From Clostridia bacterium (GTDB lineage: Bacteria > Bacillota > Clostridia > Oscillospirales > Acutalibacteraceae): 64,000 nt of DNA. The position numbers and the translations under genes are program-made. The number at the start of each line of letters is the position of its first letter. Within the stretch, counting starts at the first letter, position 1. Below are positions 2,470 through 18,684 of this stretch, piece by piece. The stretch is from the NCBI GenBank assembly GCA_017513245.1, contig JAFXGK010000014.1, forward strand, positions 25,197 through 89,196. Reading direction: 5' to 3'. The notes beneath the pieces are model-generated. The model saw nothing but the letters and a program-made list of their open reading frames with translations, was not told the DNA's origin and made no database searches.

Positions 2470-4914
2470 TTACATTTTCTCGGATATAAGCAGTGTTCCC
2501 GTGATGCCCGTAAGCTTATAAACCTTGCCGAAGGGCGAGTCAACAAGCTCATAGGTAAAGGGTGTCTGCGATACAAAATGCGGATAGTTAGAATTGAGTA
2601 AGAAGGTTGTTTTCTCAGGGGTCGAGAAGGGAATTACGTAAACCGTAGCGTCCACAAGTCCTTCAACCACCATTCTGCGCTTAATTTTGTATGCAGTTGC
2701 GATATGGTCTTTAGCGTGCATTACGGTTTTGGCACCGTTTTCAACGAACACACGGCATTCGTGGCGCCAAGCCCTCTGCAAATTATACTTTGCGTACTTG
2801 CCGTCAACAATGCATTCGTTAGCCAGCATCAGAGGTGCGCCGAGCGGAGTGCTGAGTGTTACGCCAACGGTGGTGTCGGCACAAAAACCGTTAAACCAAA
2901 CGGCGCCGTTAGAGCGATGCATAAGAATTACCGGTTCGGGAGAGTAGCGGTTAAACTTTTCAAATCGGAAGTCAAAGCCGGTATACGCTGCAGCCTTACG
3001 CATAAGCGTTTCGGCAGGGAAGGAGTCGTAGTGAACGGTGTCATCCTTCTTGGCGGCATCATCATCAGCCACCGGCTTGCGCGAGCAGTCGCAACCGCGG
3101 CACCAAATAGCCATACCGTCACCGGCGGGTGTGACGAGTGAGAGAATTCTGGTATCACCGTCTTTTTCGGCTGTAGCAAGCACGGTAGATTCGGTGTTGC
3201 CGTCTTTAAGGGTTGCAAAAAGTCCGCCATCGGTAAAGATACCGCCGTAATTTATGTTGGTGCAAATGGTATCCTCAAGCAGTTCTTTTTCGATACCGGT
3301 ATTATCGCATACCTCAAATTCACCGCAAAGTTCGGAGCTTTTTTCGAGCCCTAAAACGTCGATAATTCTCTTATCGGCGCCCAAAAGCGAGCCGTAGAAC
3401 ATAACCTTGCCGCCGTTTTTAATAAATTCGCAAAGCGCGTCACAAACCTCTGCGCCCTCGTGAGGCATCGGGGTTACTAAAATTCTGCCTGCGAAGGTTT
3501 CGGGCTTTGTTTTGGCTAATTTTCTGAAGTTATCGGTCGAAACAACACTGTTTACGGGCAGACCGTGGTTAAGCGCGGCAATAAAGTACCAATCTTCAAA
3601 GAAACTCTTTTCAAGACGTCCGCTTGCGATGCTGTTGTATTCCGAGAAGGGATAAACCCAAACAAACGGTGCCGCATCGTCGGGAGCGTTAACGTAGGAA
3701 CTGAGCATATAAGGAATAATCTCGTTGGGACAGCGGTCGGGCATATCGCCGTAACTGTCGTCAATGGATAAGAAGTTAATATGATTGGCAACTACGGTAT
3801 CGCCGTCTTTGTTGATTCGCGAGGTGGCGGTAGGCAGATAAATATCGTGGGGCTGACCTTCGTAGCGGTCAATCCAAGGGCTGTTTACCCACCAAATATC
3901 GTGAACGTAGAAACGGAAGAGGAAGTCCTCGTCCGGCAGCTCGGCCGCACGTGACATATATCCTGCAAGTTCAAGACCAAAGTTGCCGTCAAGCGCTGCC
4001 CAAGGCGAGTTGGGAGGCGGCAAAAGTTCGGGATTAAGATCGTATATTAAGCCGTGGTCAACGCCGTCGGAGGCGAAGTCAGCGCCAACTGTAAGGTTTG
4101 TGCCGCGTGTCTGAACAGGGTAGTGGCACTCTTTATAAAACAACTTCCAGAAGTCGGCTATCTTTTCACGGCAATCGTCAAGCTTCTCCTTGTAAAAAGC
4201 CTTGCCGTCAAACAAAGCGCCCGAAACGCCCCAGGTTTCGGTACCAAAGCCAAAGCCGTTCGAAAGCCAGATGAAATCAAATCCCATATCGGAAAGGAAG
4301 ATTTCCGATTGCTTGCCGAGGAAGGTGCCGAAGGGAGTACCGTCGGGAATACCGTTCGGATATGCGGCGTAAGCAACGTCGTCGCCGTTAAGCACACCGT
4401 AGCAGCAAACCATACTCTTTGCGCCCATCGAGCCGCCTTCGCAAATTTCGTTGTGACGATTGTATTTAAAGTCCGAAACCGCAAACTCGGGGCCGGGGTC
4501 AAAGGTGGTGCCGACGAAAACGGGCTTACCCGTAATGCGTGCGCCAACCTCCTTGATTATAGAAACAATATTCTTAAGATCGCGGTATGTATATTCGGGT
4601 GCGTTGTCCATATAAGGGTAGTTACGGGTGTGAAGGCCGAGTCCTTCAGGGTCGTTGGCACGGTCCCAGTTCATCTTAACGTTGGCTCCGCCCAGATAAT
4701 GCGCCCACTCGAAAACGTCGTCTAAGTTTCCACGGTAATCCAGCAGTTCGCTGCCGTCACCGGTCCACATCATAACGCCGACTTCTTCGGCCGCATCGAG
4801 TATATTCTTCCACTGTAAAAAGGCCTTTTCACAAACCTTTTCTATAACAGAAACGTCGGTGCTTTTAAAAGGCTTTAAGCTAACCTCCAGCGTAACGCGT
4901 TTTATGTTTTTCAT
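2470..4914 (-). CDS. uncharacterised 814-aa cytoplasmic protein, possibly glycoside hydrolase/phosphorylase-like
   Basis: Long ORF with a GGAGTGA RBS and no signal peptide. Composition is rich in aromatic and acidic residues (FDFIWLSNGFGFGTETWG, HDIWWVNSPW), as in sugar-active TIM barrels. The mid-region ILVTPMPHEG...NGGKVMFYGS resembles the flavodoxin-like module of GH42/GH112 enzymes. No family could be assigned by eye. Confidence 0.6.
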   Translation of the reverse strand: MKNIKRVTLEVSLKPFKSTDVSVIEKVCEKAFLQWKNILDAAEEVGVMMWTGDGSELLDYRGNLDDVFEWAHYLGGANVKMNWDRANDPEGLGLHTRNYPYMDNAPEYTYRDLKNIVSIIKEVGARITGKPVFVGTTFDPGPEFAVSDFKYNRHNEICEGGSMGAKSMVCCYGVLNGDDVAYAAYPNGIPDGTPFGTFLGKQSEIFLSDMGFDFIWLSNGFGFGTETWGVSGALFDGKAFYKEKLDDCREKIADFWKLFYKECHYPVQTRGTNLTVGADFASDGVDHGLIYDLNPELLPPPNSPWAALDGNFGLELAGYMSRAAELPDEDFLFRFYVHDIWWVNSPWIDRYEGQPHDIYLPTATSRINKDGDTVVANHINFLSIDDSYGDMPDRCPNEIIPYMLSSYVNAPDDAAPFVWVYPFSEYNSIASGRLEKSFFEDWYFIAALNHGLPVNSVVSTDNFRKLAKTKPETFAGRILVTPMPHEGAEVCDALCEFIKNGGKVMFYGSLLGADKRIIDVLGLEKSSELCGEFEVCDNTGIEKELLEDTICTNINYGGIFTDGGLFATLKDGNTESTVLATAEKDGDTRILSLVTPAGDGMAIWCRGCDCSRKPVADDDAAKKDDTVHYDSFPAETLMRKAAAYTGFDFRFEKFNRYSPEPVILMHRSNGAVWFNGFCADTTVGVTLSTPLGAPLMLANECIVDGKYAKYNLQRAWRHECRVFVENGAKTVMHAKDHIATAYKIKRRMVVEGLVDATVYVIPFSTPEKTTFLLNSNYPHFVSQTPFTYELVDSPFGKVYKLTGITGTLLISEKM

Positions 4915-5047: not shown

Positions 5048-6106
5048 TTATTCTTTAGCAGGTAAGCATTCTACCAATTCAACCTGCGTTGCAGATTTAA
5101 CCGTGAATTTACCGTTAATGCTGTAGGGTGCGAAGAAGTAATCGCCCTTCTTAACGGGGGTGGCTTCCTCGCCGCAAACTATTTCGCCTTCGCCTTCGGT
5201 AACGATATAGATTGCAGGAGCAACCAAATCATCGGTGGCCGAAGCGCAAACGCTTACGCGGTTAACGGCAAAGCAGGGGGTGTCGTCATACGAGATAAGG
5301 GCCTCGCGTTTAACGCCGTCACGCTCGTAAATTACGCGGGGTTCCTTCTTGGCACGGCGAACAGCCTCTTCTCCGAATATATCAAAATTAAATACATCCA
5401 AAGCGATATCCTCGGGCAGACCTAAATACATGGTATGCTCCGAAATACGGTTGCCTGCGCACCAAGCTTCGGGCTGAATGGTAAAGTCGGAAGGCTCCTG
5501 CGTCTCAAGGATAAGGCAGCCTGCGCCGATAGCGTGTACCATCTTGGCAGGAACGAGGTAGATATCACCCTTCTTAACGGGAACACGGTTAAGAAGCGGT
5601 TGCATATAGTCGGGCTCGTCGTAACTCTTGGCTACGGCCTCGCGGAACTCCTCCTTGGTCATCTTGTCCTTAAAACCGAAGTAAAGGCAAGCGTCCTCGC
5701 GGGTGTCAACAACGATCCAGGATTCAGCCTTACCGTAGCTGGAGTTTAAATACTTTTCGGAATAAGCGCGGTCGGGATGAGCCTGAATCGGCAGACGAAT
5801 GGCGCTGTCGAGCAGCTTTACGAGAACGGGGAAGTCGGGACGGGGACCGATCATATCCTCCTTGTAGTCCTTTAAAAGATCGGAAAAAAGGATATTGGTG
5901 CCGCGAACGGTCGAGATACCTTCGTTTTCAATGTCGCTGCCTTCATTTAAAGCCTCAACGGCCGAGCAAACCCACTCTTCGGGGAGAAAACCGTCCACCG
6001 GCTCGTCACCGAAGAAGCCTGCAAAAAGCTTACCGCCGGTGTAAATACGGCCAACTCGGTTACGGTTTAAGAAAACAGGCTTTTTGGTAATTTCACTTAT
6101 ATTCAT
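5048..6106 (-). CDS. class I mannose-6-phosphate isomerase-like cupin (sugar-phosphate isomerase)
   Basis: QAHPDRAYSEKY and VHAIGAG motifs as in type I PMI. I chose the ATG at 6106 (AGGTGA RBS 5 nt upstream) over the GTG at 6115. It lies 1 nt after the kinase stop. Confidence 0.7.
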   Translation of the reverse strand: MNISEITKKPVFLNRNRVGRIYTGGKLFAGFFGDEPVDGFLPEEWVCSAVEALNEGSDIENEGISTVRGTNILFSDLLKDYKEDMIGPRPDFPVLVKLLDSAIRLPIQAHPDRAYSEKYLNSSYGKAESWIVVDTREDACLYFGFKDKMTKEEFREAVAKSYDEPDYMQPLLNRVPVKKGDIYLVPAKMVHAIGAGCLILETQEPSDFTIQPEAWCAGNRISEHTMYLGLPEDIALDVFNFDIFGEEAVRRAKKEPRVIYERDGVKREALISYDDTPCFAVNRVSVCASATDDLVAPAIYIVTEGEGEIVCGEEATPVKKGDYFFAPYSINGKFTVKSATQVELVECLPAKE

Positions 6107-6107
6107 A

Positions 6108-7469
6108 TTATTCACCTATGTATCTGATAATTTTTTGAGCTTCCTTTATGCTCTCGCATACACCGCAGGCTGCAAGTGCGAAAACTGCGGCGCCGTAGGC
6201 AGCCTCTTCTTTGTGGGCGGGTACCGACATGGAAAGTCCGAACATCTCTTCACACATTTTGCGCCAAACGGGGCTCTTGCGAAGACCGTTACCCGAACCA
6301 ACAAGTTTGGTGGGCTTGGTGCTAAGCGTATCGGCAACCTCTAAGTACATATCGTAAAGTTCGCGTACCGAACCCTTAAGCACACCGCAAACGAGGTGGG
6401 CAGGGGTAAGGTTGTCTGTGCAGATGTTCTGTATGCTGCCGCGAACGTCGGGAGCCGAACGCTTGCCCGAAAATGCGGTATCAATAATAAGTTCATTGTC
6501 GAGCGGGTAGAAGCTTTCGGCAATATCATCCATAAAGCGATATGCCGATTCATCGCCGCCACCCTGCAAACGGAAGGTCTCGCGGAAAAACTTTTCAAGG
6601 CAGGCATAAACTCTGCCGCCGCAAAGAGCGCTTCCAACGAGGATATAATCGTCGCCGGTCAGGGGACGAACCTCACCGGAGGGGAATGCGGTTTCGGGTG
6701 CGCCCTTAACCGAAATCTGGCTTCCTGTGCCGATATTAACGAGAATGGTGTTTTCGCTGTCGTCAACCGAGCCGATAAAGCTTGCCTGATTGTCGCCGAT
6801 GGCAACACTTACGGGAATACCCTCAAAGTTGCCTGCCGAAGCGGTATCGGCGGTAACCTCGGGCAGCATCGAAATATCAAATCCCAGTTTTTCGCAAGCG
6901 GCGGTGTCGAAGCGGGCGTTCTTTATATCGAAAAGGCCAAAGCTTGCTGCATCCGAAGAATGCATAAGCGGAGTCTTTCTGCCGCAAAGGCGCATGGCAA
7001 TATAATCATGAATGGTACAAAAACTGCGTGCCTTAGCAGGTACAAGACCGTTTTGCAGATTATAGTAATGTGTGGCAAGGCCGTATCCGGGGGCAACCGA
7101 ATAGCCGGTAAGCTCCTTAATCTTTTCGCAATAAGTCTTACCGTCCTTTGCCTTTTCGGCAGCGCGACCGTCCTGCCAGGTGGCAAGAGAACTGCAGGCA
7201 ACACCGTTTTCATCGGTGTAAACAATTCCGTGCATCTGGCCGGTTACACCGATAGCGCAAACGTCTGCCGCCTCGGCGCGAACCTGTGCGAGAAGGTCGA
7301 AAACCTTACCCTCTATAATCTCAACCGACTGGATTTTTTCATAAGCCTTGTCGGTTTCGATAAAGCTTTCGCTGTTTACGGTAATGGCCTTTTTGCCGAT
7401 ACCCGTTTCGGCGTCAACCGCCGAAACGCATATCGTTGTTGTTCCAATATCAATTCCTAAAACGTACAT
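6108..7469 (-). CDS. FGGY-family carbohydrate kinase
   Basis: N-terminal VLGIDIGTTTIC ATPase motif, plus GVTGQMHG and VGSGNGL motifs. I chose the start at 7469 (MYVLGID), one base after the GRE stop codon. Confidence 0.85.
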   Translation of the reverse strand: MYVLGIDIGTTTICVSAVDAETGIGKKAITVNSESFIETDKAYEKIQSVEIIEGKVFDLLAQVRAEAADVCAIGVTGQMHGIVYTDENGVACSSLATWQDGRAAEKAKDGKTYCEKIKELTGYSVAPGYGLATHYYNLQNGLVPAKARSFCTIHDYIAMRLCGRKTPLMHSSDAASFGLFDIKNARFDTAACEKLGFDISMLPEVTADTASAGNFEGIPVSVAIGDNQASFIGSVDDSENTILVNIGTGSQISVKGAPETAFPSGEVRPLTGDDYILVGSALCGGRVYACLEKFFRETFRLQGGGDESAYRFMDDIAESFYPLDNELIIDTAFSGKRSAPDVRGSIQNICTDNLTPAHLVCGVLKGSVRELYDMYLEVADTLSTKPTKLVGSGNGLRKSPVWRKMCEEMFGLSMSVPAHKEEAAYGAAVFALAACGVCESIKEAQKIIRYIGE

Positions 7470-7470
7470 A

Positions 7471-9825
7471 CTAACACTCCAAGGTTGTGGATTTAAGGTC
7501 AAGACGCTTGATTATATCCTGCTGAATAGCGGGAGAAAGGTCGAGGAAGTTAACAAACGTGCCGTGAATACGCATGATGTAAACACCGCTCGGAGCGTAC
7601 TTCTTCGGATTTGCAAGCACCTTACGGAGCATTTCGGGGGTAGTAACGTTAACGTAGAGATAGAAGGGAGCAAGCTTATCGTTAAGCGGGTTGAAGAAGA
7701 ACTGACGCATAACCTTGTTCTTGAATTCGATACCTTTTTCTTCATAGGTAGCACCGGTGAAGTAGTTGGGGTCGATACCGAAGTGCGAGGCAAAGCCGCC
7801 GTTCATCTTAATGTAGGGAAGTTTGAAGGAAGAAAGAACACGGAAACCAAGACCCTGATGTGCATCGCCGAACAGCGGGTCAACGCCGTAGTTCATCATC
7901 TCTCTTGCCTTTCTGCCGTCGGGCAGAGCGCCAACCCAATAACCATAGGTGAGGTGGGTGGAGGGAGAGGAGAAGTCGGGACGGAAGGGATTGCCGAGGT
8001 AGTTCTTCTCTGCGGCTACCATATCGGCAACCTTGGAAGCAACCTCTGCAGCCTCATCGTCAACAACGGCGATGTTGTTACCGTACTTCTTGCAGCCGAG
8101 AAGATACTCGTGAAGTTCGTCATCGCCTGCAAAATCGTTTGCGAGAGCCTTGATAAGGCGCTCAGCATCTTCGGGTCTTTCTTCGAGGAGTGTGTCAACG
8201 GCGATAAAGCTGTCGGCAACAATCGAAAGACCGTGAATAAGACATCCGCTGCCGTTGTAGGGGGTACCCTGATGAACGGGGTCACGCATATCGTAGCCCG
8301 ACTGGATACCGCCCATAAGGGTGGAAAGGAAGGGAACGGGCAGGTTAGAAAGCGCACGGGAAGCACCGTTTGCCGACTTGGTCATTTCCTTAATAATAAA
8401 CTGGCAGTTAGCGTAGAAACGCTCGCGCAGATTCTTTAAGATGGTGATAGCATCGTCGCCGGTTGCGGGCAGGATGCGGTCGCCTGTGATGGTCGAAACA
8501 CCGTCGCTTAAGGTGAGCTCAAGAATCTTGCCGAGGTTGAGCCAGCTGTTGGTGGTGTTGGCGTTATCCTTACCCATGATAAGCGGCTCCTGGCAGCCTG
8601 CGATGGAGTAATCGGCAAGGTCGCACTCGGCTACGCCGGCATTGCGAAGAACCTCGAATACCGAGTCATCGTTGAAGAGTGAGGGGGTAAGACAGCCGGG
8701 GGTAAAGAAGAAACGTCCGAGCTCTTCATAGAGTTTATCGGGGGTATTCTTATGAAGCTTTACCGAAAGAATAGGCTGAGGCAGGTTCATATCGTAGTAA
8801 GCGTCGAGCAGTGCATAGGAGCAGAGGTTGGTAAGGTCGTTACCCTCTGTGTCCTTACCGCCGACGATAAGGTTCTGGCTGATTGCCCAGCTGCGGTCAG
8901 CAACGTTGTAGAAAACAAGCAGATGCTTGAAAAGAGCAGCGGCATCCTCACGCGAGAGGTTATCCATTGCGCGGTAGGGCTCGAAGATGCGGTCAGCGTT
9001 ACCAACCGAGAAAGCAAACGGGTTGGGAGCCTGCTCAAGGCACATTACCTGCCACATAAGAATGAAGGACTGAATTGCCTCGAAGAGGTTGCGAGCGCCC
9101 TCTGCAGGAACGCGTGCGAGAGCGTCAGCAAGACGGTTGAACTGCTCAGCCTTATCGCCGACTGCCTTTTCGAGAGCAATCTCTCTATAGCGGGCAGCAA
9201 AGATAATAACGGCATCGAGAGAGTCAAGCATTGCCTTATAGGCATCGATGCGCTCGGCGTCGTCGGTCTTCTGCATATTAGCCTCGATTTCACGCTTCAT
9301 CTCATTAACGCCAACTTTAAGTGCGTGGCGCATATCGGGAATAACGTGACCGGTAACCTGCTCAACGAAGAAAGCAACTTCCTTTGTATAGTTTTCGGCT
9401 GCATCGTAAACCTTGGTGAGCTCTTTTATGTAATCGGTTTCCTTATCGTGAGCCTTAACGGTATCAAGACGCTCTTGTGTTATATCCTCGTTGGGCTCAA
9501 TATCGCCGAAAACAGCGGTAGGATCGCAGTAACCCGAGAAGGTTTCAACGCGGAAAGCGGGGTTGATAAGAGCATAGCTGCGAGCAAAAGCATCGCGCTG
9601 TGTACCTGCGAAAACAGCATTGTCGCTGATGGAAATCGGAAGCTCTGCAGCTATCTTCTTAAGCAGATATGCGGTACGGCGCATCTTGGACATACCCTCG
9701 GTCTCGTGCTCGTATTTCATGCCGATTTCCTTGGAAAGGAACCAACCGTCAAGACGCATTAAACTGCGCTCTTCGCGGAATAATTCTTTTGCCATTTCGG
9801 TGGTCTTCTGGTGATTGATTGCCAT
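7471..9825 (-). CDS. glycyl radical enzyme (pyruvate formate-lyase superfamily), substrate unknown
   Basis: 784 aa. The C-terminal Gly-radical loop YIMRIHGTFVNF aligns to PFL TIRVSGYAVRF. The thiyl loop is SIAGCQEP (Cys411, Glu413). GGGAGGA RBS. Confidence 0.9.
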   Translation of the reverse strand: MAINHQKTTEMAKELFREERSLMRLDGWFLSKEIGMKYEHETEGMSKMRRTAYLLKKIAAELPISISDNAVFAGTQRDAFARSYALINPAFRVETFSGYCDPTAVFGDIEPNEDITQERLDTVKAHDKETDYIKELTKVYDAAENYTKEVAFFVEQVTGHVIPDMRHALKVGVNEMKREIEANMQKTDDAERIDAYKAMLDSLDAVIIFAARYREIALEKAVGDKAEQFNRLADALARVPAEGARNLFEAIQSFILMWQVMCLEQAPNPFAFSVGNADRIFEPYRAMDNLSREDAAALFKHLLVFYNVADRSWAISQNLIVGGKDTEGNDLTNLCSYALLDAYYDMNLPQPILSVKLHKNTPDKLYEELGRFFFTPGCLTPSLFNDDSVFEVLRNAGVAECDLADYSIAGCQEPLIMGKDNANTTNSWLNLGKILELTLSDGVSTITGDRILPATGDDAITILKNLRERFYANCQFIIKEMTKSANGASRALSNLPVPFLSTLMGGIQSGYDMRDPVHQGTPYNGSGCLIHGLSIVADSFIAVDTLLEERPEDAERLIKALANDFAGDDELHEYLLGCKKYGNNIAVVDDEAAEVASKVADMVAAEKNYLGNPFRPDFSSPSTHLTYGYWVGALPDGRKAREMMNYGVDPLFGDAHQGLGFRVLSSFKLPYIKMNGGFASHFGIDPNYFTGATYEEKGIEFKNKVMRQFFFNPLNDKLAPFYLYVNVTTPEMLRKVLANPKKYAPSGVYIMRIHGTFVNFLDLSPAIQQDIIKRLDLKSTTLEC

Positions 9826-9838
9826 AAAATTTCCTCCC

Positions 9839-10576
9839 TTATGTTCTTACTGCAGTAAAGCCTGCAGCCTTAAATTTGCTTACTGTTTTTTTATAACATT
9901 CGGTGCTTATGTTCGCGTTTTCCATAGCGTACACAAGTCCGCATTGTTTCCATTTATCCTTGCCGTATTCGTGATAGGCCAAAAATTCAATTCTTATATC
10001 GTCCTTAAAGGGCAAAAGCGCCTGAAGCAGTTTGTCGGTTGCGTCCTCATCGGCATTAAAGCCGTTTATCAGCGGTACGTGCACCAAAATATCGAGTTTT
10101 GCATCCACAGCCGCCTTAAGATTTTTAAGTATCGGGTAGAGCACACCGCCTGCAACCGATAAAAGTTTATCTTCGTCAGCGCTTTTAACGTCCATAATCA
10201 AATGGTCGAGAAAGGGGAAAAGCGTCGGCAGGGCGGGGCTCATAGCGTTGGTTTCAATCGCTGTGTTAATGCCCTCGTCTTTAAGCCTTTTAAGCAGCTC
10301 GCGAACCGCGTCGGCCTGCAGCGTTACTTCACCGCCCGTAAGCGTTACTCCGCCGCCGTCAAAAAACATCGGCTTGCAGGATATTATTTCCGACAGCATA
10401 TCCTCAACCGTTACCTGTGTAATCGGGAAGGCAGGGTATGCGGCGTCGGCCTTCATTCCTTCGGGATTGGAACACCAAGGACATTTCATATTGCAACCGT
10501 GCAGATGATAAACCAAACGGTTGCCGGGTCCGTCCTGGGAGTAATTAAACCCTTTTTGAAAATATTTTATCGTCAT
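9839..10576 (-). CDS. glycyl-radical enzyme activating protein (radical SAM)
   Basis: CNMKCPWCSNPE (CX3CX2C) near the N-terminus. 245 aa, the short PflA-like form without a ferredoxin insert. Located immediately upstream of the GRE. Confidence 0.9.
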   Translation of the reverse strand: MTIKYFQKGFNYSQDGPGNRLVYHLHGCNMKCPWCSNPEGMKADAAYPAFPITQVTVEDMLSEIISCKPMFFDGGGVTLTGGEVTLQADAVRELLKRLKDEGINTAIETNAMSPALPTLFPFLDHLIMDVKSADEDKLLSVAGGVLYPILKNLKAAVDAKLDILVHVPLINGFNADEDATDKLLQALLPFKDDIRIEFLAYHEYGKDKWKQCGLVYAMENANISTECYKKTVSKFKAAGFTAVRT

Positions 10577-10618
10577 TTTTCCTCCATTAGTTCAAACCTT
10601 AAACTAATTGCTATAATA

Positions 10619-10711: not shown

Positions 10712-11863
10712 ATGAAAAGCTACGCCAAAAACGTGCAGTCGATAAAGAACGACAACCGCGCAACCATCCTTAATTTAATCCGCAAAGCGCCCGTTTCGCG
10801 AGCCGAAATTTCTGCGGTGGCAGGCCTTTCGAAGTCCTCCGTAACCATGATAACCAACGCCCTTATATCCGAAGGTCAGGTGAGGGAAATCGGCACCGAG
10901 GAATCCACGGTCGGACGCAAGAGAATTTTGCTGGATATCGTCGCCGATTACCGCTTTGCCGCAGGTATAATTCTTCACCGCCGCGATATTAAGGTCTGCC
11001 TGACCGACCTTAAAGGCGAGGTAATTACCCGCGCCAGTACTGCTATCGAAAATTTCCGTTCGGCCGACGAGGTAATCGACTATACGGTGAACACCGTTTT
11101 CGAGTTGATAGACCGACTTTCTCTTAAAAAAGAGGACTGTATCGGCATCGGCATCAGCTGTCCGGGACCGCTTGATATAACCCGTGGCGTCGTGCTTTCG
11201 CCGCCTCATCTTGATATGCTGCATAACGTTGCATTTTGCGATAAAATCCGCGAAAAAACGGGTATGAACGTATCGCTCGAAAACAACGCCGTGCTGCTTG
11301 CAATGCGTGAGAATCTTATACGTGATAAAATGCAGAATTTTATGTCGGTAATCATATCCCACGGTATTGGCTCAGCCGTTGTAACGGCGGGCGAAATTTA
11401 TCGCGGAGCGCTCGGTTTTTCGGGCGAGCTCGGCCATATAAGCGTGGTGGCAGACGGTCTTCGTTGCCCCTGCGGAAACTGCGGCTGCCTTGAGCGTTAC
11501 GTATCGCTTTCGGCCCTTAAGGAGCACTTCGGATTCACCGATTATAAGCAAAAGGTCGATATGGCCTACGAGGGCGACGAAGAGGCTCTTTCGGTGCTTC
11601 GCTACATTACGACCTATCTCGGCAGCGGCCTTGTAAGCGCCGTAAATTTATTCGATTTGGACGCCGTAATTTTGCACGGCGACTATTCCTACCGTCCTGA
11701 GCTTTTAAACGGAATGTTAAAGAAATATATAAACAAAAACTCGGTTGTTGCGGCGGTTCACGGGGTAGAGGTTATATCCTCGCCCGAGCGAAACGACCGC
11801 GCTGAAGGCAACTCGACAGCCGCTATAATTGAACAGTATTTCGACCAGATTTTGGAGGGCTAA
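10712..11863 (+). CDS. ROK-family transcriptional regulator
   Basis: N-terminal winged-HTH (NRATILNLIRKAPVSRAEISAVAGLSKSSV) and a ROK Zn motif (GHI...CPCGNCGCLE). Start at the ATG at 10712, preceded by AAGGGGGGA. Confidence 0.85.
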   Translation: MKSYAKNVQSIKNDNRATILNLIRKAPVSRAEISAVAGLSKSSVTMITNALISEGQVREIGTEESTVGRKRILLDIVADYRFAAGIILHRRDIKVCLTDLKGEVITRASTAIENFRSADEVIDYTVNTVFELIDRLSLKKEDCIGIGISCPGPLDITRGVVLSPPHLDMLHNVAFCDKIREKTGMNVSLENNAVLLAMRENLIRDKMQNFMSVIISHGIGSAVVTAGEIYRGALGFSGELGHISVVADGLRCPCGNCGCLERYVSLSALKEHFGFTDYKQKVDMAYEGDEEALSVLRYITTYLGSGLVSAVNLFDLDAVILHGDYSYRPELLNGMLKKYINKNSVVAAVHGVEVISSPERNDRAEGNSTAAIIEQYFDQILEG

Positions 11864-11864
11864 A

Positions 11865-12995
11865 ATGATACTCGACCGTTACGATTTAGAAACCTATACC
11901 TTGCCCGTTTGGGAGGGTGATACAGTATATAACGAAGGCGTTCTGTTTTATAGGGGTCGCCGTCGCGCTCGCCTTTTATACCCGATTGACGAGGTGATTT
12001 CTCTCCGCAGCTTTGATTTGCAAACCGAATTTTGCGAGGGCAAGGATTACTATGTAGAAAACGGCGAGCTTGTCCTTACTGAGAATACCGAAATTCCCGT
12101 TTGGGATATCGAACCGCTGACCGAAAAGCCGAATTGCCACGTTTTTCCCGCAAAGAAAGAAGGGCTTTTCCTTTACGACACCTGCGGCATAAAAATGCGC
12201 CAAATGACGGTATGCGTTACGTATAAGCATTCCAAGGTTTTCCCCGACGGTTATTCGGGCAGGGGAGTAGATACACTGCGCGCCAAACTGCCCGATATAT
12301 TCAAAAAACTCGAAAACGGCGAAACAGTTAATATTATGCTTAACGGCGACAGCAACTACACCTCGTGGGGCTGTAGCGGCGGCTATGCGGAGGAAAGGTT
12401 TTTCGACAGAACCGATACCGGCTCTTTCTATACGGTAGGACTTAACGTTCCGCCGTATTCTCCTCCGTGGTTTGATATGTTCGTATCGGTGCTCAGAGAG
12501 CGTTTCCCCAAGGCCGAAATCAACGTTGATAATATCTCTATGGGCGGCGTTGACGCACGCTGGGCAAGCGAGCATCTCTCGGCTCGACTGAAACTCTCGA
12601 AGCATCGCCCCGACATCGTTTTCTACGGCTACGGCGTAAACGATCTTTGCGGCGGCGCAAGCGCAGCTACTTATAAAAAGCATAATCTTGAGCTTATCGA
12701 TAAGCTTCGCGCAGATGAAAACGGCAACCCGCAGGTGGCCTGCGTTATGGTGTCGCCCCATATATGCAATACCGACGCTAAGTGCTATCCCACCGAGGTC
12801 TTCCTTGAGTATGAAAAAATGCTTGAAGAAATTTGCGAAGAGCGCGAAAACTGCGTTCAAATCAAGCTTACCTCGTTCTCGTATGATATCGCAAAATGCA
12901 AGAAGCCGCTCGACCGACTTGAGAACAACATAAACCATATGATGGACTTCAGCGGACGTATGTTTGCGCAAATTTTCATCGAATCCATGAAATAA
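11865..12995 (+). CDS. SGNH/GDSL-like hydrolase (putative carbohydrate esterase)
   Basis: Block I LNGDSNYTSWG and a late-block GVNDL. The start is 1 nt after the ROK stop, so the two are probably co-transcribed. Confidence 0.65.
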   Translation: MILDRYDLETYTLPVWEGDTVYNEGVLFYRGRRRARLLYPIDEVISLRSFDLQTEFCEGKDYYVENGELVLTENTEIPVWDIEPLTEKPNCHVFPAKKEGLFLYDTCGIKMRQMTVCVTYKHSKVFPDGYSGRGVDTLRAKLPDIFKKLENGETVNIMLNGDSNYTSWGCSGGYAEERFFDRTDTGSFYTVGLNVPPYSPPWFDMFVSVLRERFPKAEINVDNISMGGVDARWASEHLSARLKLSKHRPDIVFYGYGVNDLCGGASAATYKKHNLELIDKLRADENGNPQVACVMVSPHICNTDAKCYPTEVFLEYEKMLEEICEERENCVQIKLTSFSYDIAKCKKPLDRLENNINHMMDFSGRMFAQIFIESMK

Positions 12996-13974: not shown

Positions 13975-14346
13975 TTAATCAAAATCCCAATCCATTTCTT
14001 TGAGGCATGTTCCGTTTGGGGAAATAAAAAAAGAGGGGCTACTAACAGAGCCTTTGTAATTAGCGTAGTTGGTTTTTACGTTGCTGCGTTTAGCTTTTGT
14101 TTTGCGAATATAATAAGCACTGTTATTGTTTTTTGTTTTTGAAAAAGGGGGGATAGGCACATCAATGCCGAGGGTTGTTTTTAAATATCTTTTCGCTTCC
14201 GTGTCCGCAGGAAACAAGCCTTCGCCAAATATTGAAATGTTACGTTTGTATTTTTTCCCTTTGTAATAAACAACGATAAATGTGCTCGAACTATTGAAAT
14301 TTTCCACCCACACAATTTCTTGGTTTTTGCAATAAAACTTTTTCAT
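13975..14346 (-). CDS. hypothetical small basic protein (123 aa), no recognisable domain
   Basis: AGAGGTGA RBS 5-6 nt upstream of the ATG. AT-rich codon usage like the neighbouring island gene. Lys/Asn/Tyr-rich. Confidence 0.55.
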   Translation of the reverse strand: MKKFYCKNQEIVWVENFNSSSTFIVVYYKGKKYKRNISIFGEGLFPADTEAKRYLKTTLGIDVPIPPFSKTKNNNSAYYIRKTKAKRSNVKTNYANYKGSVSSPSFFISPNGTCLKEMDWDFD

Positions 14347-14467
14347 TTTATCACCTCTAAAATAAAAGTAAAATGGTGCGATTGTTTTTTTACAGGCTAT
14401 ACACTTTTATACAGTATATCACTATTATATGATTTCTGCAATTAAAGAGCAAAAACAGGTGATTTAA

Positions 14468-14496
14468 TTGACGCACTACGGTAGCGATGTTATAAT
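14468..14496 (+). promoter_or_regulatory. sigma-A type promoter for the HelD-like gene (TTGACG-17 nt-TATAAT)
   Basis: TTGACG at 14468-14473, a 17-nt spacer, and TATAAT at 14491-14496. Confidence 0.5.
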
Positions 14497-14536
14497 AATA
14501 TTGCGATGTTAAGGCAAGGTGAAGGGGTGAGTAAAA

Positions 14537-17227
14537 ATGTTATTTAAATATAATATTTTTGGATACGACAAAGAAGGCTATAATCGTAAAGGTTTTGATA
14601 AAAACGGCTTTGATCGCAGTGGTTATGATAAAGACGGCTATAACAAGGACGGGTATGACGCTAACGGATACGACAGATTAGGCTACGATTTACGGGGCTA
14701 TGATAAAAGCGGGTATGATAAACAGGGCTTTGACAGCACTGGATACAATGCGAACGGTTTTGATAGAAAAGGCTTTGATCATAGCGGTTTTGATAAAGAC
14801 GGCTATGACAAAGATGGGTATGACGCCAACGGATACGACAGGTTAGGTTATGATTTGCAAGGCTATAATATTGATGGATACGATATAAAAGGCTTTGATA
14901 AACTGGGTTTTGACCATAGCGGCTTTGATAAAAACGGCTTTAATCGTAGCGGCTTTGATAAAGACGGCTATGACAAAGATGGGTATGACGCCAACGGATA
15001 CGACAGATTAGGTTATGATTTGCAAGGCTATAATATTGATGGATACGATATAAAAGGCTTTGATAAATTAGGTTTTGACCATAGCGGCTTTGATAGAAAC
15101 GGCTATGACAAAAAAGGATATGATGCTGACGGATATGACCAGTTAGGCTATGATTTGAATGGCTATGATAGAAGCGGGTATGACCGCAATGGCAAAAGAT
15201 TTGTTCATGATGACAAAATAATCGAGCTTACAAAAAAGACGTATAAAAAAAGAAACAAGGAAAATTTAAAAGAGTTAGGTGATTCGTTTGATGGCGGGTT
15301 ATATGGTGTGGAAAATTATGAGTTGGCCCGCTATATTTATGAAATTGCAAAAGGGAAAAATGTTCGAGTAAGTGAACAATATTATTATGCTCCTACCCAA
15401 GCTGCTTTTCAAAAAAACGATAATTCGTTTGGTGAGATTTTCAACCAAGAAAAGAGCACTCTAAAAAGGGTAAAAACGGCTATTGAAAATGACATTTCCA
15501 AAACAACTGAAGGAATAGAAGAGGTTGAAAAAGAAACCTGGTGGATGGATTATGACCAAAAGAACGAATGGCGTGTAACAGCGGGCAGAAATCGCAAAAA
15601 AGAAGATAAGATTTTCTTTTTGCAAAAAATCAAAAAGCGCCCATATTATGCCAGAATGGACACCAAAACAGAAGGAGAAATCAGCACTGCTTATATAGGG
15701 GAAGAGCATTACGATAGCGAAGATGGAACTTGCTGTATTGCCTCTGTATGGTCGGAAATCGGTAGGCGTTATAGAGAAAAACGCAATTCATCGTTTCAAT
15801 TCGATGGCAAGGTGCATGAAATACAATTAAGACGAAACCTTGAAATCCAAAATGGTGAACTGATTGACGTTTATGATGAGTATAATGTTGGTTCTGAAGC
15901 TGCAACAAACAATATAACCGACCTGTATTTGTTAAAAGTTCTTGAGGAGAAGAAGGGCGAAAAGAATATAACCAACATTATTCGTTCGATACAGTTAAAT
16001 CAAAATGCCATAATCGAATATGATTTTCAAAAGAATTTGTTGGTTCAGGGCTGTGCCGGCAGTGGTAAAACAATGATATTATTGCATAGGCTTGCTAATA
16101 TGAAGTTTAATTACCCGGATGTGGATTATACAAGAGTGAAAATCATCACCCCAAACAAAAATTTTAATTTGTTTATCGATGAATTATCTAAAAATCTTCA
16201 TATAGAGCAAATACCTAAAATGACGATTGGCGAGTATTGGATTGATGTTGTATCAAGATATAGGGTTGCGCATACTAAAGATAAATCGCCCATGCCTTAT
16301 AGTTTGGAAGATTTATTAACTGATGACTTTTCAAAGGAAGTTAGAGAAATCATTTATTCAAAAGAATTCGCCAACGTACTAAAAACATCAATAGAAAAAA
16401 TACCCAAAGGTCTTGACTATACACAAGATGGTACGAAAAAAAAGGAAGACGGCAGCACTGAAAAAAAGGAAGGTAGTATAAGAAAAATTGATAATGCTAT
16501 TGAGGAGGCACTATGTAGTTTTGGTTTGAGAGATATTAAGGTTGCGGATAGAAAAGAAAACAACAAAACTAATCATATGGATCTCACAGATTCAATACTT
16601 TATGCAAAAGTTTTGGCGCTATTCTTGTATTACGGACCGTTAAGTAATATTTACCAAGATACGTATTTGTGCGTTGATGAAGGACAAGATATTTCTTTGT
16701 TGCAATACGGGTTAATGTTAAGAATTAATCGCAATAATGTTAAGTTTAATATATATGGCGATATATATCAACAAATACCAAGTGGTTGCAATATTGAAGA
16801 TTGGGATTATTTATTAAAGTATATTCAGGCAGAAAAGTTTGTTCTAAATGAGAATTATAGAAATAGCGAAGAAATTATACAGTTCTATAACCAAAAACTT
16901 TCTATGTCTAATTTATCCTTCGGTTTAAAAACTAAAGAGGTTGAAAAAATATCCCACAAAACATTGATTTGGAAAGTTTTACTCAATTTAATACTTGGCA
17001 ATCGGACCGCTATAATATGTAATGATTACAACCTTATTCCAAATGACATCAAAGAATTCTGTTCATTTAATGATTTGTCAGCAACGAATAAAGCCAATGT
17101 GTTAACGGTAAAACAAGCAAAAGGCCTCGAATATGATACAGTGTTTGTTTTTGATAAGGATATGAACAAAAACGAAAGCTACATTTCATATACCAGAGCT
17201 TTAAGTGAACTGTATATTGTTGAATGA
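14537..17227 (+). CDS. UvrD/HelD-like superfamily-1 ATPase with an N-terminal G-[YF]-[DN]-x-x pentapeptide repeat array
   Basis: SF1 motifs are present: GCAGSGKT (Walker A), CVDEGQDIS (motif II), NYRNSEEI, and TVKQAKGLEYDTVFV...YISYTRALSELYI. A HelD-like pre-helicase segment is RPYYARMD...AYIGEEH...ASVWSEIGRRY. Residues 9-218 are pentapeptide repeats. Confidence 0.85.
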   Translation: MLFKYNIFGYDKEGYNRKGFDKNGFDRSGYDKDGYNKDGYDANGYDRLGYDLRGYDKSGYDKQGFDSTGYNANGFDRKGFDHSGFDKDGYDKDGYDANGYDRLGYDLQGYNIDGYDIKGFDKLGFDHSGFDKNGFNRSGFDKDGYDKDGYDANGYDRLGYDLQGYNIDGYDIKGFDKLGFDHSGFDRNGYDKKGYDADGYDQLGYDLNGYDRSGYDRNGKRFVHDDKIIELTKKTYKKRNKENLKELGDSFDGGLYGVENYELARYIYEIAKGKNVRVSEQYYYAPTQAAFQKNDNSFGEIFNQEKSTLKRVKTAIENDISKTTEGIEEVEKETWWMDYDQKNEWRVTAGRNRKKEDKIFFLQKIKKRPYYARMDTKTEGEISTAYIGEEHYDSEDGTCCIASVWSEIGRRYREKRNSSFQFDGKVHEIQLRRNLEIQNGELIDVYDEYNVGSEAATNNITDLYLLKVLEEKKGEKNITNIIRSIQLNQNAIIEYDFQKNLLVQGCAGSGKTMILLHRLANMKFNYPDVDYTRVKIITPNKNFNLFIDELSKNLHIEQIPKMTIGEYWIDVVSRYRVAHTKDKSPMPYSLEDLLTDDFSKEVREIIYSKEFANVLKTSIEKIPKGLDYTQDGTKKKEDGSTEKKEGSIRKIDNAIEEALCSFGLRDIKVADRKENNKTNHMDLTDSILYAKVLALFLYYGPLSNIYQDTYLCVDEGQDISLLQYGLMLRINRNNVKFNIYGDIYQQIPSGCNIEDWDYLLKYIQAEKFVLNENYRNSEEIIQFYNQKLSMSNLSFGLKTKEVEKISHKTLIWKVLLNLILGNRTAIICNDYNLIPNDIKEFCSFNDLSATNKANVLTVKQAKGLEYDTVFVFDKDMNKNESYISYTRALSELYIVE
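14561..15190 (+). repeat. coding tandem repeat with a 15-bp period (42 units) and a 165-bp higher-order period
   Basis: 42 consecutive G-[YF]-[DN]-x-x units. The 11-unit blocks at 14786-14950 and 14951-15115 are nearly identical in DNA, and an older copy lies at 14621-14785. Confidence 0.95.
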
Positions 17228-17303
17228 AAAAGCGTTGCTTTTGATTTCTAATTGTCTTGTGTTGCGATGCGTTTAAGTCGAAAAAATCAAGCAATTTGCA
17301 AAC

Positions 17304-17337: not shown

Positions 17338-18120
17338 TTAATAAGCCTTAAAGCCTAAATCTGCAAGTGTTAACTTTACGCCCTCGTTTTTGAAGCACGA
17401 ATCAGTCAAAGATAAAAGCGTGTGGAAGAGGTTGTCCAGCTCGGCATCCTTACAAACCTTGGTGGTCTTGGTGAGCTTGGCAATATCAAACTTGCCGCTT
17501 TCGCTTTTGGTGGCATACTCGATTTTGTAGGTAGCCTTTGTAATGTTTATTTCGTAACTAAACTTGTTACCGTTATCGAAACCACTCTTTCTAAGAACAA
17601 AGTTGTTGTAATAATCGAGAATTATATAAACGTCGTGGGGCGCCATAAGATATTCGGAACTCATGGCGGCGCCGTCCGAGCCCTTGGACTTAATTACGTT
17701 GCTCAGATAGTCAAAAACCTTTTCGGGGTTAATGCGGTCACACTTGGTGCAGAAATCACCCGAAAAATTGTGGGCAAAATCTATTTCCTCGGTGTAGGTA
17801 TCGCCGCAGGCGCAGGTGTAGGTTACCGAGCCCTTTTTGGTGCAGGTAGCGGCAACAGTTTTGGTCTTATAGTCGTGGGTGTGCTCGTTCTTGCCGTCAC
17901 CCTTATCGGTCGAAGGCTTGCTCGATTCTTCTTCCTTGCTGCTTACAGGCTTATCGTCCTTGTCATCCTTATCGTTGGCCGGCTCGCTCGAAGAGGGCGC
18001 GTCGGTGTTTTCCGTTTCGGATGAAGTGTCGTCAATGCGGATAACGGTGGTCTCACTGCCGCAAGCGCAGAGTGAGAATATAAGTAACAGTGCTAATAAA
18101 AGTGCAGAAAGCTTTTTCAT
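17338..18120 (-). CDS. lipoprotein with an acidic low-complexity linker and a Cys-rich module
   Basis: MKKLSALLLALLLIFSLCACGS lipobox. AAGGAGA RBS before the ATG at 18120. CTKKGSVTYTCACGDTY...FCTKCDR cysteine cluster. The longer ORF extending to 18462 has no RBS. Confidence 0.75.
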   Translation of the reverse strand: MKKLSALLLALLLIFSLCACGSETTVIRIDDTSSETENTDAPSSSEPANDKDDKDDKPVSSKEEESSKPSTDKGDGKNEHTHDYKTKTVAATCTKKGSVTYTCACGDTYTEEIDFAHNFSGDFCTKCDRINPEKVFDYLSNVIKSKGSDGAAMSSEYLMAPHDVYIILDYYNNFVLRKSGFDNGNKFSYEINITKATYKIEYATKSESGKFDIAKLTKTTKVCKDAELDNLFHTLLSLTDSCFKNEGVKLTLADLGFKAY

Positions 18121-18318
18121 TTTCAGGTCTCCTTTTTGTGGATTACAAAATGATTTTATCATAAAATCCTGCCCAATACAACGACAAATTAGGGCATTTT
18201 TTGCCACGAAACAAAGCATTATTTTACTTTTTGTGTTTTGAAAATTTTCCTCTCGCATAATAAAGGCGTTGTAAACCGCGTAAAAATATGTTATTTTATC
18301 ATAAAAGGAGGGGTGAAA

Positions 18319-18684
18319 ATGCCGCTTACGGAAAGACCGGTGCACATATATGAACCAACGCCGCTGCAGTGCGGTCAGGCGGTGCTTGCCATGCTTTCGG
18401 GCGAGAGTGTTGAAAACGTAATAAACATCTGCGGAACCGACCGCGAAACCACCCTTCGCCAAATGTTTTCTACCCTCGAAAATCTGGGCATTTCCTATAG
18501 CCGCGAAAGGGTAGAGGTAAAGGAAAAAAGCGCCCTTCCGAGGGTCTGCATTCTAAGCCTCGAAACGCCTAAATGCTGGCATTGGTCGTTATATTTTGAC
18601 GGCGTTTTTTACGACCCCGAATACGGCGTTTTATCCGATTTTCCGCCGTCTGACCGCCGCTATTATTTCGAAATACTGTCCTAA
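18319..18684 (+). CDS. small stand-alone papain-fold (C39-like) cysteine peptidase domain protein
   Basis: AAGGAGGGG RBS. 121 aa. LQCGQAVLAML (Gln-Cys nucleophile context), then HWSLYFDGVFYDPEYG (His...Asp). Confidence 0.5.
   Translation: MPLTERPVHIYEPTPLQCGQAVLAMLSGESVENVINICGTDRETTLRQMFSTLENLGISYSRERVEVKEKSALPRVCILSLETPKCWHWSLYFDGVFYDPEYGVLSDFPPSDRRYYFEILS

Follow-up and report, generated by a model that had tools for sequence, protein, structure and literature searches.

An operon for an uncharacterised glycyl radical enzyme, a divergent FGGY kinase and a PMI-fold isomerase in Clostridia, and its possible role in sugar catabolism

The operon described here lies in a 64,000-nt stretch (the window, to which all coordinates refer) of a contig from an uncultured Clostridia bacterium of the Acutalibacteraceae. 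It consists of four minus-strand genes, which encode a radical S-adenosylmethionine (SAM) activase, a glycyl radical enzyme (GRE) belonging to an uncharacterised clade, a divergent carbohydrate kinase of the FGGY family, and a zinc cupin with the fold of phosphomannose isomerase (PMI). A gene for a ROK-family protein is transcribed divergently from it. The features of the locus, in the direction of transcription of the operon and ending with the regulator, are as follows (aa, amino acids).

10647-10619, minus strand: sigma-70-type operon promoter, TTGACA-17-TATAAT, with a 12/12 match to the consensus in the signal scan
10586-10608, no strand assigned: operator-like palindrome ATTAGTTTAA-N3-TTGAACTAAT, an inverted repeat between the -10 box and the ribosome-binding site (RBS)
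10576-9839, minus strand: GRE activating enzyme (radical SAM, 245 aa), core only, without the ferredoxin-like insert (Pfam and TIGR02494)
9825-7471, minus strand: GRE of an uncharacterised clade, 784 aa (Pfam PFL-like; Cys411-Gln-Glu413, His160, and Gly755 in RIHGTF)
7469 (ATG)-6108, minus strand: carbohydrate kinase of 453 aa, a divergent FGGY member whose translation is coupled to that of the GRE (FGGY_N and FGGY_C)
6106 (ATG)-5048, minus strand: PMI-fold zinc cupin isomerase, 352 aa, without the phosphate-binding Arg (AlphaFold2, AF2, and Foldseek)
5040-5013, minus strand: intrinsic terminator of the operon, an 11-12-pair stem with 7 G-C pairs, then a T-run
10727-11863, plus strand: divergent ROK-family repressor, 378 aa, probable regulator of the operon (Pfam ROK and an N-terminal helix-turn-helix, HTH)

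Direct reading of the sequence and of its open reading frames (ORFs) bore out the four genes, their coordinates and the end-to-end packing that an earlier note on this DNA had described. The activase stop codon (TAA, 9841-9839) is followed from the very next base by GGGAGG. A single T separates the GRE stop codon (TAG, 7473-7471) from the ATG of the kinase, and a single T likewise separates the kinase stop codon (TAA, 6110-6108) from the ATG of the isomerase. The domain calls from Pfam (Radical_SAM, PFL-like, FGGY_N with FGGY_C, and cupin/MPI_cupin) fitted the gene assignments of that note, and the GC content of the operon was uniform with that of its flanks. The consensus promoter and the terminator that had been placed at the two ends were both recovered by the signal scan, the terminator beginning 8 nt past the stop codon of the isomerase gene. 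Counted over the whole region, promoter-like and terminator-like sites were no more numerous than in shuffled sequences, and it is by quality and position, not by number, that the promoter and terminator of the operon are distinguished. The TTGACA-N17-TATAAT arrangement was also found upstream in the related loci L001, L003, L004 and L005.

By its predicted fold and its Pfam match the 784-aa protein is a PFL-like GRE, and it stands outside every characterised group, as the earlier note had supposed. The PFL-like domain (PF02901, 1.2e-105) was its sole Pfam match, and the Gly_radical model gave none. A sequence search of solved proteins returned the B12-independent glycerol dehydratase (GD) as best match, at 208 bits, together with PflD (E = 4e-40, 27% identity) and YbiW (E = 1e-22, 22% identity) of Escherichia coli. 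The AF2 model (pLDDT 80.5, pTM 0.86, with low confidence in the Gly loop and residues 621-638) showed the PFL-like fold, a ten-stranded beta/alpha barrel of about 80-100 kDa, with TM values of 0.74-0.81 to more than 40 solved GRE chains. It superposed on all of the eliminase-, isomerase-, decarboxylase- and succinate-synthase-type GREs, with TM values of 0.73-0.81 (about 0.8 for the eliminase type) at identities of only 17-26%. In the earlier note, tight clustering with a biochemically characterised GRE of non-sugar function, for example above 60% identity, would have told against the proposal, and the values found are far below this. Scores were also far under every NCBIfam equivalog cut-off (HypD, HpsG, HpfG, PflD, CutC, IAD, PFL and HPAD); the PflD model (NF007437), for example, gave 175 bits against a cut-off of 1109. 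When the protein was placed in a library of 1.84 billion representatives at 50% identity, full-length matches were found at 66% and 57%, then at 43%, 40%, 35%, 35% and 33%, and then in a continuum of GREs at ~30%, the clade being a discrete one. Searches of the literature on glycyl radicals combined with kinase, isomerase or anhydro topics returned no description of it, and a review of June 2026 names nothing of this kind, whether as a C-O eliminase or as an isomerase (PMC13450708).

The alignment with GD placed C411-Q-E413 on C433-V-E435 and H160 on H164, and in E. coli PflD and YbiW the counterpart of C411 is the catalytic cysteine of the Cys loop (GCxE). The CxE motif of 1,2-eliminase and isomerase GREs is therefore present, and C411, E413, H160 and G755 are invariant among 39 homologues. 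This motif is common to the C-O eliminases and the GRE isomerases; in GD the Glu takes the proton from the hydroxyl of the substrate, and the oxygen that departs receives one from the His (PMC13450708). Among the residues with which GD binds its diol (H164, H281, S282, Y339, D447 and Y640, a list taken in part from PMC13450708), only H164 is kept, as H160; the other five correspond, in that order, to F270, A271, S316, T425 and S619. Replacement of these five substrate contacts argues that the enzyme is not a glycerol or propanediol dehydratase and that its pocket is probably larger, and it fits a different and larger substrate.

In GREs the radical glycine is held in the fingerprint RVxG[FWY]x6-8[FL]x4Qx2[IV]x2R (PMC13450708). 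The corresponding sequence of the window GRE is R752-I-H-G755-T...L763...Q768..I771..R774, in which the Gly and the downstream positions fit, while Val is changed to Ile and the aromatic residue to Thr; both deviations are invariant in the clade. The atypical RIHGT fingerprint would account for the missing Gly_radical match and also for the source annotations of these proteins as 'pyruvate formate lyase family protein' or 'hypothetical protein'.

The activase matched Radical_SAM and Fer4_12 in Pfam, and matched TIGR02494 (164 bits) in two stretches that skipped profile positions ~30-100. It has a single CX3CX2C motif (C28-X3-C32-X2-C35) and six Cys in total, and judged from its sequence it lacks the ferredoxin-like insert. 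Nearly all GRE activases except PFL-AE and RNR-AE carry this insert (PMC13450708), so that an activase without it is unusual. The activase relatives of Lachnospiraceae and Christensenella, at 288-300 aa and with 10-16 Cys, probably retain the insert.

The conservation of the gene linkage was followed in one genome per GTDB species. Relatives of the GRE were encoded in 295 stretches, of which the best 80 were analysed, and linkage was counted at those loci that had enough flanking DNA. The clade was thus present in at least 80 species genomes. The GREs of these 80 loci are 64-96% identical to that of the window, and their hosts are mostly metagenome-assembled genomes (MAGs) of Acutalibacteraceae and Oscillospiraceae, with some Christensenellales and Lachnospiraceae; the samples that yielded the clade genomes came from humans, ruminants and poultry. 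Identities of 64-70% across bacterial families indicate strong selection for a single function. The activase gene lies directly upstream of the GRE gene in 73/73 loci and an orthologous kinase (at least 35% identity) lies directly downstream in 65/71, with a PMI-like gene following the kinase in 49/66. The co-occurrence of kinase and isomerase with GRE orthologues, on which the earlier note had made its proposal depend, was thus upheld, and it was seen again in a sister clade at 35% identity. At the loci without a PMI-like gene the kinase is followed by genes that, on reading of their sequences, are housekeeping ones (MetY-, RecJ- and RelA-like), which suggests that activase-GRE-kinase is the minimal module.

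The clade GRE was always accompanied by sugar-pathway genes. A Lachnospiraceae locus (L074) contains a substrate-binding protein, DeoR, the activase, the GRE, LacI, an aldo-keto reductase (AKR), a XylB equivalog (457 bits) and an equivalog of fructose-6-phosphate aldolase (FSA; 230 bits against a cut-off of 214), and L078 has the GRE with a XylB equivalog (473 bits) and LacI. Upstream of the activase-GRE pair in L076 and L056 are a rhamnulokinase, a class II aldolase and GatY-like, XylB-like, galactitol-1-phosphate dehydrogenase-like and GatZ-like proteins, and the Christensenella tenuis locus (L079) has a ribose-type ABC transporter and a Zn-dependent alcohol dehydrogenase. Transporters of the monosaccharide ABC type adjoin the GRE in L079 and are encoded in its vicinity in L052 and L053; the earlier statement that the locus encodes no transporter is thus correct for the window and does not hold for several related loci. 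A phosphotransferase system (PTS) was not seen in any annotated locus.

The sister clade is represented by L085, in which the order is CUT1 ABC transporter, 393-aa protein, GRE (P0132), XylB equivalog (513 bits) and activase. The 393-aa protein aligned collinearly with the PMI-like protein of the window in BLASTP (24% over 341 aa) and in hhalign (probability 79%, E = 1.5e-5), and these alignments identify it as a remote PMI-fold relative. Its presence suggests that the triad of GRE, FGGY kinase and PMI-fold protein is older than the clade itself. A metagenome scan with P0132 returned only 8 distant loci and did not enlarge the sister clade, and the gene contexts of the 33-35% relatives P0137 and P0139 were uninformative.

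Several other proteins were observed around related GREs. An ORF of ~216 aa with no Pfam match follows the PMI-like gene in 36 related loci (L008-L050 and others; e.g. L030:14788-15444); it is absent from the window lineage and might be a fifth member of the operon where present. Proteins of the URO-D family, possibly methyltransferase-like, flank the GRE in C. tenuis (L079:7758-9032 and L079:17471-18670), and a gene of the same family (L083:3-443) precedes a relative of 43% identity (P0126) as the sole context gene there. In a Clostridia MAG (L054:6613-9181) a 506-aa protein without a Pfam match and a DUF2961 protein are encoded on the same strand directly upstream of activase-GRE-kinase-PMI; DUF2961 corresponds to glycoside hydrolase family GH172, to which alpha-D-fructofuranosidase and difructose-dianhydride enzymes belong. 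In locus L068 the ROK gene is preceded by genes for CUT1 ABC permeases and for a DUF5696 protein (L068:473-6581), while downstream (L068:16720-20838) there are another FGGY kinase and another GRE, this one canonical and with the Gly_radical domain.

The kinase of the window carries FGGY_N (83 bits) and FGGY_C (43 bits), both over the Pfam cut-offs, and the N-terminal motifs DIGTT and GDNQAS can be read in its sequence. It is very distant from the solved FGGY kinases (at most 53 bits), and its best NCBIfam model, XylB (TIGR01312), gave 131.7 bits, well below the equivalog cut-off of 380.25. That cut-off is passed by the kinases beside related GREs in L074, L078, L076 and L085 (404-513 bits). 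The scores point to the kinases associated with related GREs being XylB-type ketose kinases, which would fit a late phosphorylation.

For the PMI-like protein a confident AF2 model (pLDDT 94.9) was obtained, for which the top Foldseek match was the B. subtilis PMI 1qwr (TM 0.73/0.81, 24% identity); TM values to the Salmonella and Candida enzymes were ~0.64-0.70. The score with TIGR00218, 82.7 bits, was under the cut-off of 116.2. A profile alignment placed Q108, H110, E128 and H191 on the Zn ligands Q97, H99, E134 and H255 of E. coli ManA; the PMI fold and its Gln/His/Glu/His metal site were both found. At the position of the Arg in the ManA motif SDNVLR the same alignment has Q211 (SDFTIQ), which is invariant among 44 homologues. 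A Gln in place of the phosphate-binding Arg suggests that the protein isomerises a non-phosphorylated aldose/ketose pair upstream of the kinase, so that free sugars would be isomerised and phosphorylated later. The earlier note had supposed that the GRE acts on a phosphorylated product of its neighbours, which this invariant Gln and the XylB-type kinases do not favour.

The closest NCBIfam models of the ROK protein (Pfam ROK, 1.2e-45) are NagC and Mlc, both under cut-off. Three features were looked for in it and around it as marks of a ROK repressor, namely an N-terminal HTH, a ROK sugar-binding domain and a palindrome at the regulated promoter, and all were found. A ROK gene adjoins the operon, mostly divergently, in about 12 loci. 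The palindrome is conserved at loci where the ROK gene is divergent from the operon, in surrounding DNA that has itself diverged: the pattern was found with zero mismatches in L001, L003, L004 and L005 and with one in L062, and in variant form as ATAGTTCAAGAGTTGAACAA in L067 and L069 and as ATAGTTCAAGATATGAACAA in L068. The divergent ROK repressor probably binds here. In its left half, TTAGTTTAAG, the palindrome agrees letter for letter with a site of XylR of Paenibacillus polymyxa that was verified by electrophoretic mobility shift assay (PMC9104551), and sequence comparison indicates that the ROK protein is a XylR-like, sugar-responsive repressor, although its inducer is not thereby identified.

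Taken together, we tentatively favour the interpretation that this is a ROK-repressed catabolic operon keyed on the GRE and serving a sugar route with late phosphorylation, at a confidence that falls a little short of even. In such a route the activase would put the radical on Gly755, and the thiyl radical of Cys411 would take a hydrogen off a carbinol carbon in an uncharged substrate about as large as a monosaccharide. This substrate would be out of reach of ordinary sugar enzymes; it might be an anhydro-sugar or a polyol, for example, or some other sugar bearing an ether or a leaving group. Glu413 would deprotonate the hydroxyl and His160 would help the neighbouring C-O (or C-X) group to leave, giving a deoxy-keto sugar. 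The PMI-like Zn isomerase, lacking the Arg that anchors the 6-phosphate, would interconvert a free aldose/ketose pair in the same pathway, and the XylB-like kinase would then phosphorylate the terminal hydroxymethyl group of the ketose. The phosphorylated product would pass into glycolysis, possibly through an FSA-type aldolase like the one that adjoins the GRE in one Lachnospiraceae locus. The overall logic would be like that of the 'anhydroglycolysis' of YbiW and PflD in E. coli, with a kinase in place of the PTS and with the radical step probably taken on the unphosphorylated sugar. The evidence supports a C-O-type (or C-X-type) radical eliminase or isomerase that is coupled to late phosphorylation of a ketose. 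Sulfoquinovose, O-methyl sugars, C-glycosides, uronate decarboxylation, levoglucosan, heptoses and cyclitols were also considered for the substrate and were not adopted, evidence for them being lacking.

A number of points weigh against this interpretation. The model is of low confidence at the Gly loop and at residues 621-638, and the active-site mapping is a sequence alignment at ~26% identity and not a comparison of coordinates. The PMI-like gene is lacking at about a quarter of loci, and an FSA aldolase and AKR adjoin the GRE at only one locus (L074). That R304 of the C. albicans PMI and R274 of the Salmonella enzyme anchor the 6-phosphate is our assumption, for which no confirming paper was found in the literature searched. 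Moreover, if the substrate is an anhydro-alditol or a polyol, the product of the GRE would be a 1-deoxy-ketose or a 2-deoxy-aldose, on which a C1-C2 isomerase cannot act, so that the simplest model leaves the role of the PMI-like protein unexplained. A bolder version, in which an unprecedented GRE reaction on a free sugar, a phosphate-blind PMI-like isomerase and a XylB-like kinase together form a new entry into anaerobic glycolysis, the reaction being a radical C-O (ether or hydroxyl) or C-X cleavage in a non-phosphorylated sugar or derivative, is doubtful as a whole. If true, it would be a new route that is widespread in the gut Oscillospirales, Christensenellales and Lachnospiraceae of animals.

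The order of steps put forward in the earlier note, with the isomerase and kinase acting first and the GRE then taking the resulting ketose phosphate, or the phosphate of an anhydro-sugar or polyol, as its substrate, would make the GRE a stand-in for the aldolase or epimerase step of an isomerase-kinase-aldolase pathway. Isomerase followed by kinase is the classical order, the four genes are co-transcribed, and a PMI-like protein without the phosphate-binding Arg would suit a first step on a free sugar. In addition, the only characterised sugar GREs, YbiW and PflD, which open 1,5-anhydrohexitol 6-phosphates (Ma et al., JACS 2024, via PMC13450708), use 6-phosphates. Nevertheless we regard this order as unlikely: the minimal module is activase-GRE-kinase with housekeeping flanks, the isomerase being lacking in ~25% of loci, and none of the known ketose phosphates depends on a radical step to reach central metabolism. 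Nor was a phosphate-binding site found in the GRE, where comparison with the basic residues that YbiW and PflD have in common gave no discrimination.

It is improbable that the GRE instead cleaves the C-S bond of a sulfo-sugar or the C-N bond of an amino-sugar as a lyase, for example in the direct desulfonation of sulfoquinovose or sulfofructose, with the isomerase and kinase processing the sugar skeleton. The sample names place the hosts in herbivore, bird and human guts, where plant sulfolipid is abundant, and an isomerase with a ketose kinase follows the logic of the sulfo-Embden-Meyerhof-Parnas (sulfo-EMP) pathway. However, no sulfite exporter or reductase, sulfoquinovosidase or amine-handling gene was present in the Pfam-annotated loci, and retention of the Arg would be expected if the PMI-like protein bound a sulfonate, which is anionic. 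GREs do cleave C-S and C-N bonds beside carbinols (PMC13450708), but the window enzyme has kept His160, a residue of the GD type that the same review ties to C-O cleavage in GD (PMC13450708).

Very improbable, in our judgement, is a GRE isofunctional with YbiW and PflD that opens the 6-phosphate of 1,5-anhydroglucitol or 1,5-anhydromannitol, with the FGGY kinase taking the place of the PTS. The CxE motif and the His are common to both, and the XylB-type kinase, FSA aldolase and AKR that accompany the GRE in L074 correspond to the E. coli partners; the PTS and FSA context of YbiW and PflD was otherwise not reproduced, L074 being the only locus with an FSA by the GRE. The low identities to the two enzymes and the score with the PflD model given above argue against such a function, as does the PMI-like partner, which has no role in that pathway. 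FGGY kinases are not known to phosphorylate pyranose-locked sugars. Finally, a glycerol/1,2-propanediol dehydratase-type enzyme that acts on a C3 fermentation product of the sugar used by the kinase and isomerase is hardly credible, since, although GD and 1,2-propanediol dehydratase (PD) are the closest solved structures and a rhamnulokinase equivalog and class II aldolases lie near the GRE in L076 and L056, the GRE matches GD and PD at only 24-26% identity, the substrate contacts of GD are replaced at five positions, genes for a microcompartment shell, aldehyde dehydrogenase and lactaldehyde reductase are absent from the window operon, and most loci lack an aldolase.

The earlier note had taken the ROK regulator, an SGNH esterase and an 814-aa 'glycosidase-like' protein as fitting a glycan-derived substrate. 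The 814-aa ORF (2470-4914, minus strand), directly downstream of the operon, encodes an orphan protein for which no Pfam, NCBIfam or PDB sequence match was found, so that the label has no support; its only conserved counterparts, 81-83% identical, are those of L002 and L003, the two nearest relatives, and no similarity was detected to the DUF5696 protein of L068 or to any of the neighbouring ORFs. The 814-aa protein, the SGNH esterase and a polysaccharide deacetylase occur beside the GRE only in the three or four closest relatives (L002-L005), and these flanks therefore give no conserved support for a substrate derived from glycans. The ATG of the SGNH/GDSL esterase gene (11865) lies 1 nt past the ROK stop codon (junction 11861-11867), with its GGAGGG RBS inside the ROK gene, and the ROK-SGNH pair is kept in L003-L005; the esterase is thus probably on the transcript of the regulator in this genus.

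The remainder of the examined window consists of housekeeping genes. A stretch at ~14000-17300 differs in its GC content (0.31-0.37, against about 0.48-0.53 elsewhere), has a strong positive GC skew and codes for a protein of 896 aa whose C-terminal part is a UvrD-like helicase/AAA_19 region; it may be a horizontally acquired island. Two further ORFs had no Pfam match: one of 374 aa beside this stretch (17338-18462, minus strand), and one of 546 aa (27167-28807, plus strand) among genes for FtsH, a BD-FAE esterase and an aminotransferase.

GREs let strict anaerobes reach substrates that ordinary enzymes cannot activate, and each newly assigned clade has revealed a pathway of relevance to the gut, as with choline, hydroxyproline, sulfonates and anhydrohexitols. 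If a substrate were assigned to the present clade, the known routes of anaerobic carbohydrate use would gain a step, and annotations that now read 'pyruvate formate lyase family', 'class I mannose-6-phosphate isomerase' or 'hypothetical protein' would be put right. The non-canonical RIHGT fingerprint and the minimal activase are of mechanistic interest in their own right. The earlier note had presented a radical route for a carbohydrate as a departure from known GRE chemistry; this is outdated, as YbiW and PflD were already GREs of sugar phosphates in 2024 (PMC13450708), and with this precedent the concept of a sugar-catabolic GRE already exists.

Among the known systems close to the operon are YbiW/YbiY and PflD/PflC of E. 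coli, with FsaA/FsaB and GldA. The GREs on both sides are PFL-like, have a CxE Cys loop and a conserved His, and belong to sugar catabolism in the gut, and the arrangement in L074, with its FSA aldolase and reductase, mirrors ybiW-fsaA and pflD-fsaB-gldA. Unlike them, the window operon has no PTS and has a XylB-like FGGY kinase; its PMI-fold isomerase, usual in the loci of the clade, has no counterpart there; its activase lacks the ferredoxin-like domain; and its glycine lies in RIHGT where that of the YbiW/PflD system lies in RVAGY. GD of C. butyricum (1r8w) and PD (5i2g, 9rco) are the best matches in sequence and structure, with Cys, Glu and His aligned, yet the similarity is low and the context is one of sugar enzymes instead of a diol pathway and microcompartment. 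The isomerase shares with the type I PMIs (1qwr and ManA of E. coli and Salmonella) the fold, at TM 0.73-0.81, and the same four metal ligands, and differs from them in its identity of 15-24%, its score below the TIGR00218 cut-off and the Gln in place of the Arg of SDNVLR / SDxTYR. The xyl operons of Firmicutes, with XylB and the ROK protein XylR, are alike in the best model of the kinase and in the operator half-site, whereas here there is no xylA, the kinase scores 131.7 against 380 bits and the regulator models are NagC and Mlc. What sets the operon apart from these systems is its kinase in place of a PTS, an apparently phosphate-blind PMI-like protein, and a minimal activase paired with an atypical glycyl radical fingerprint.

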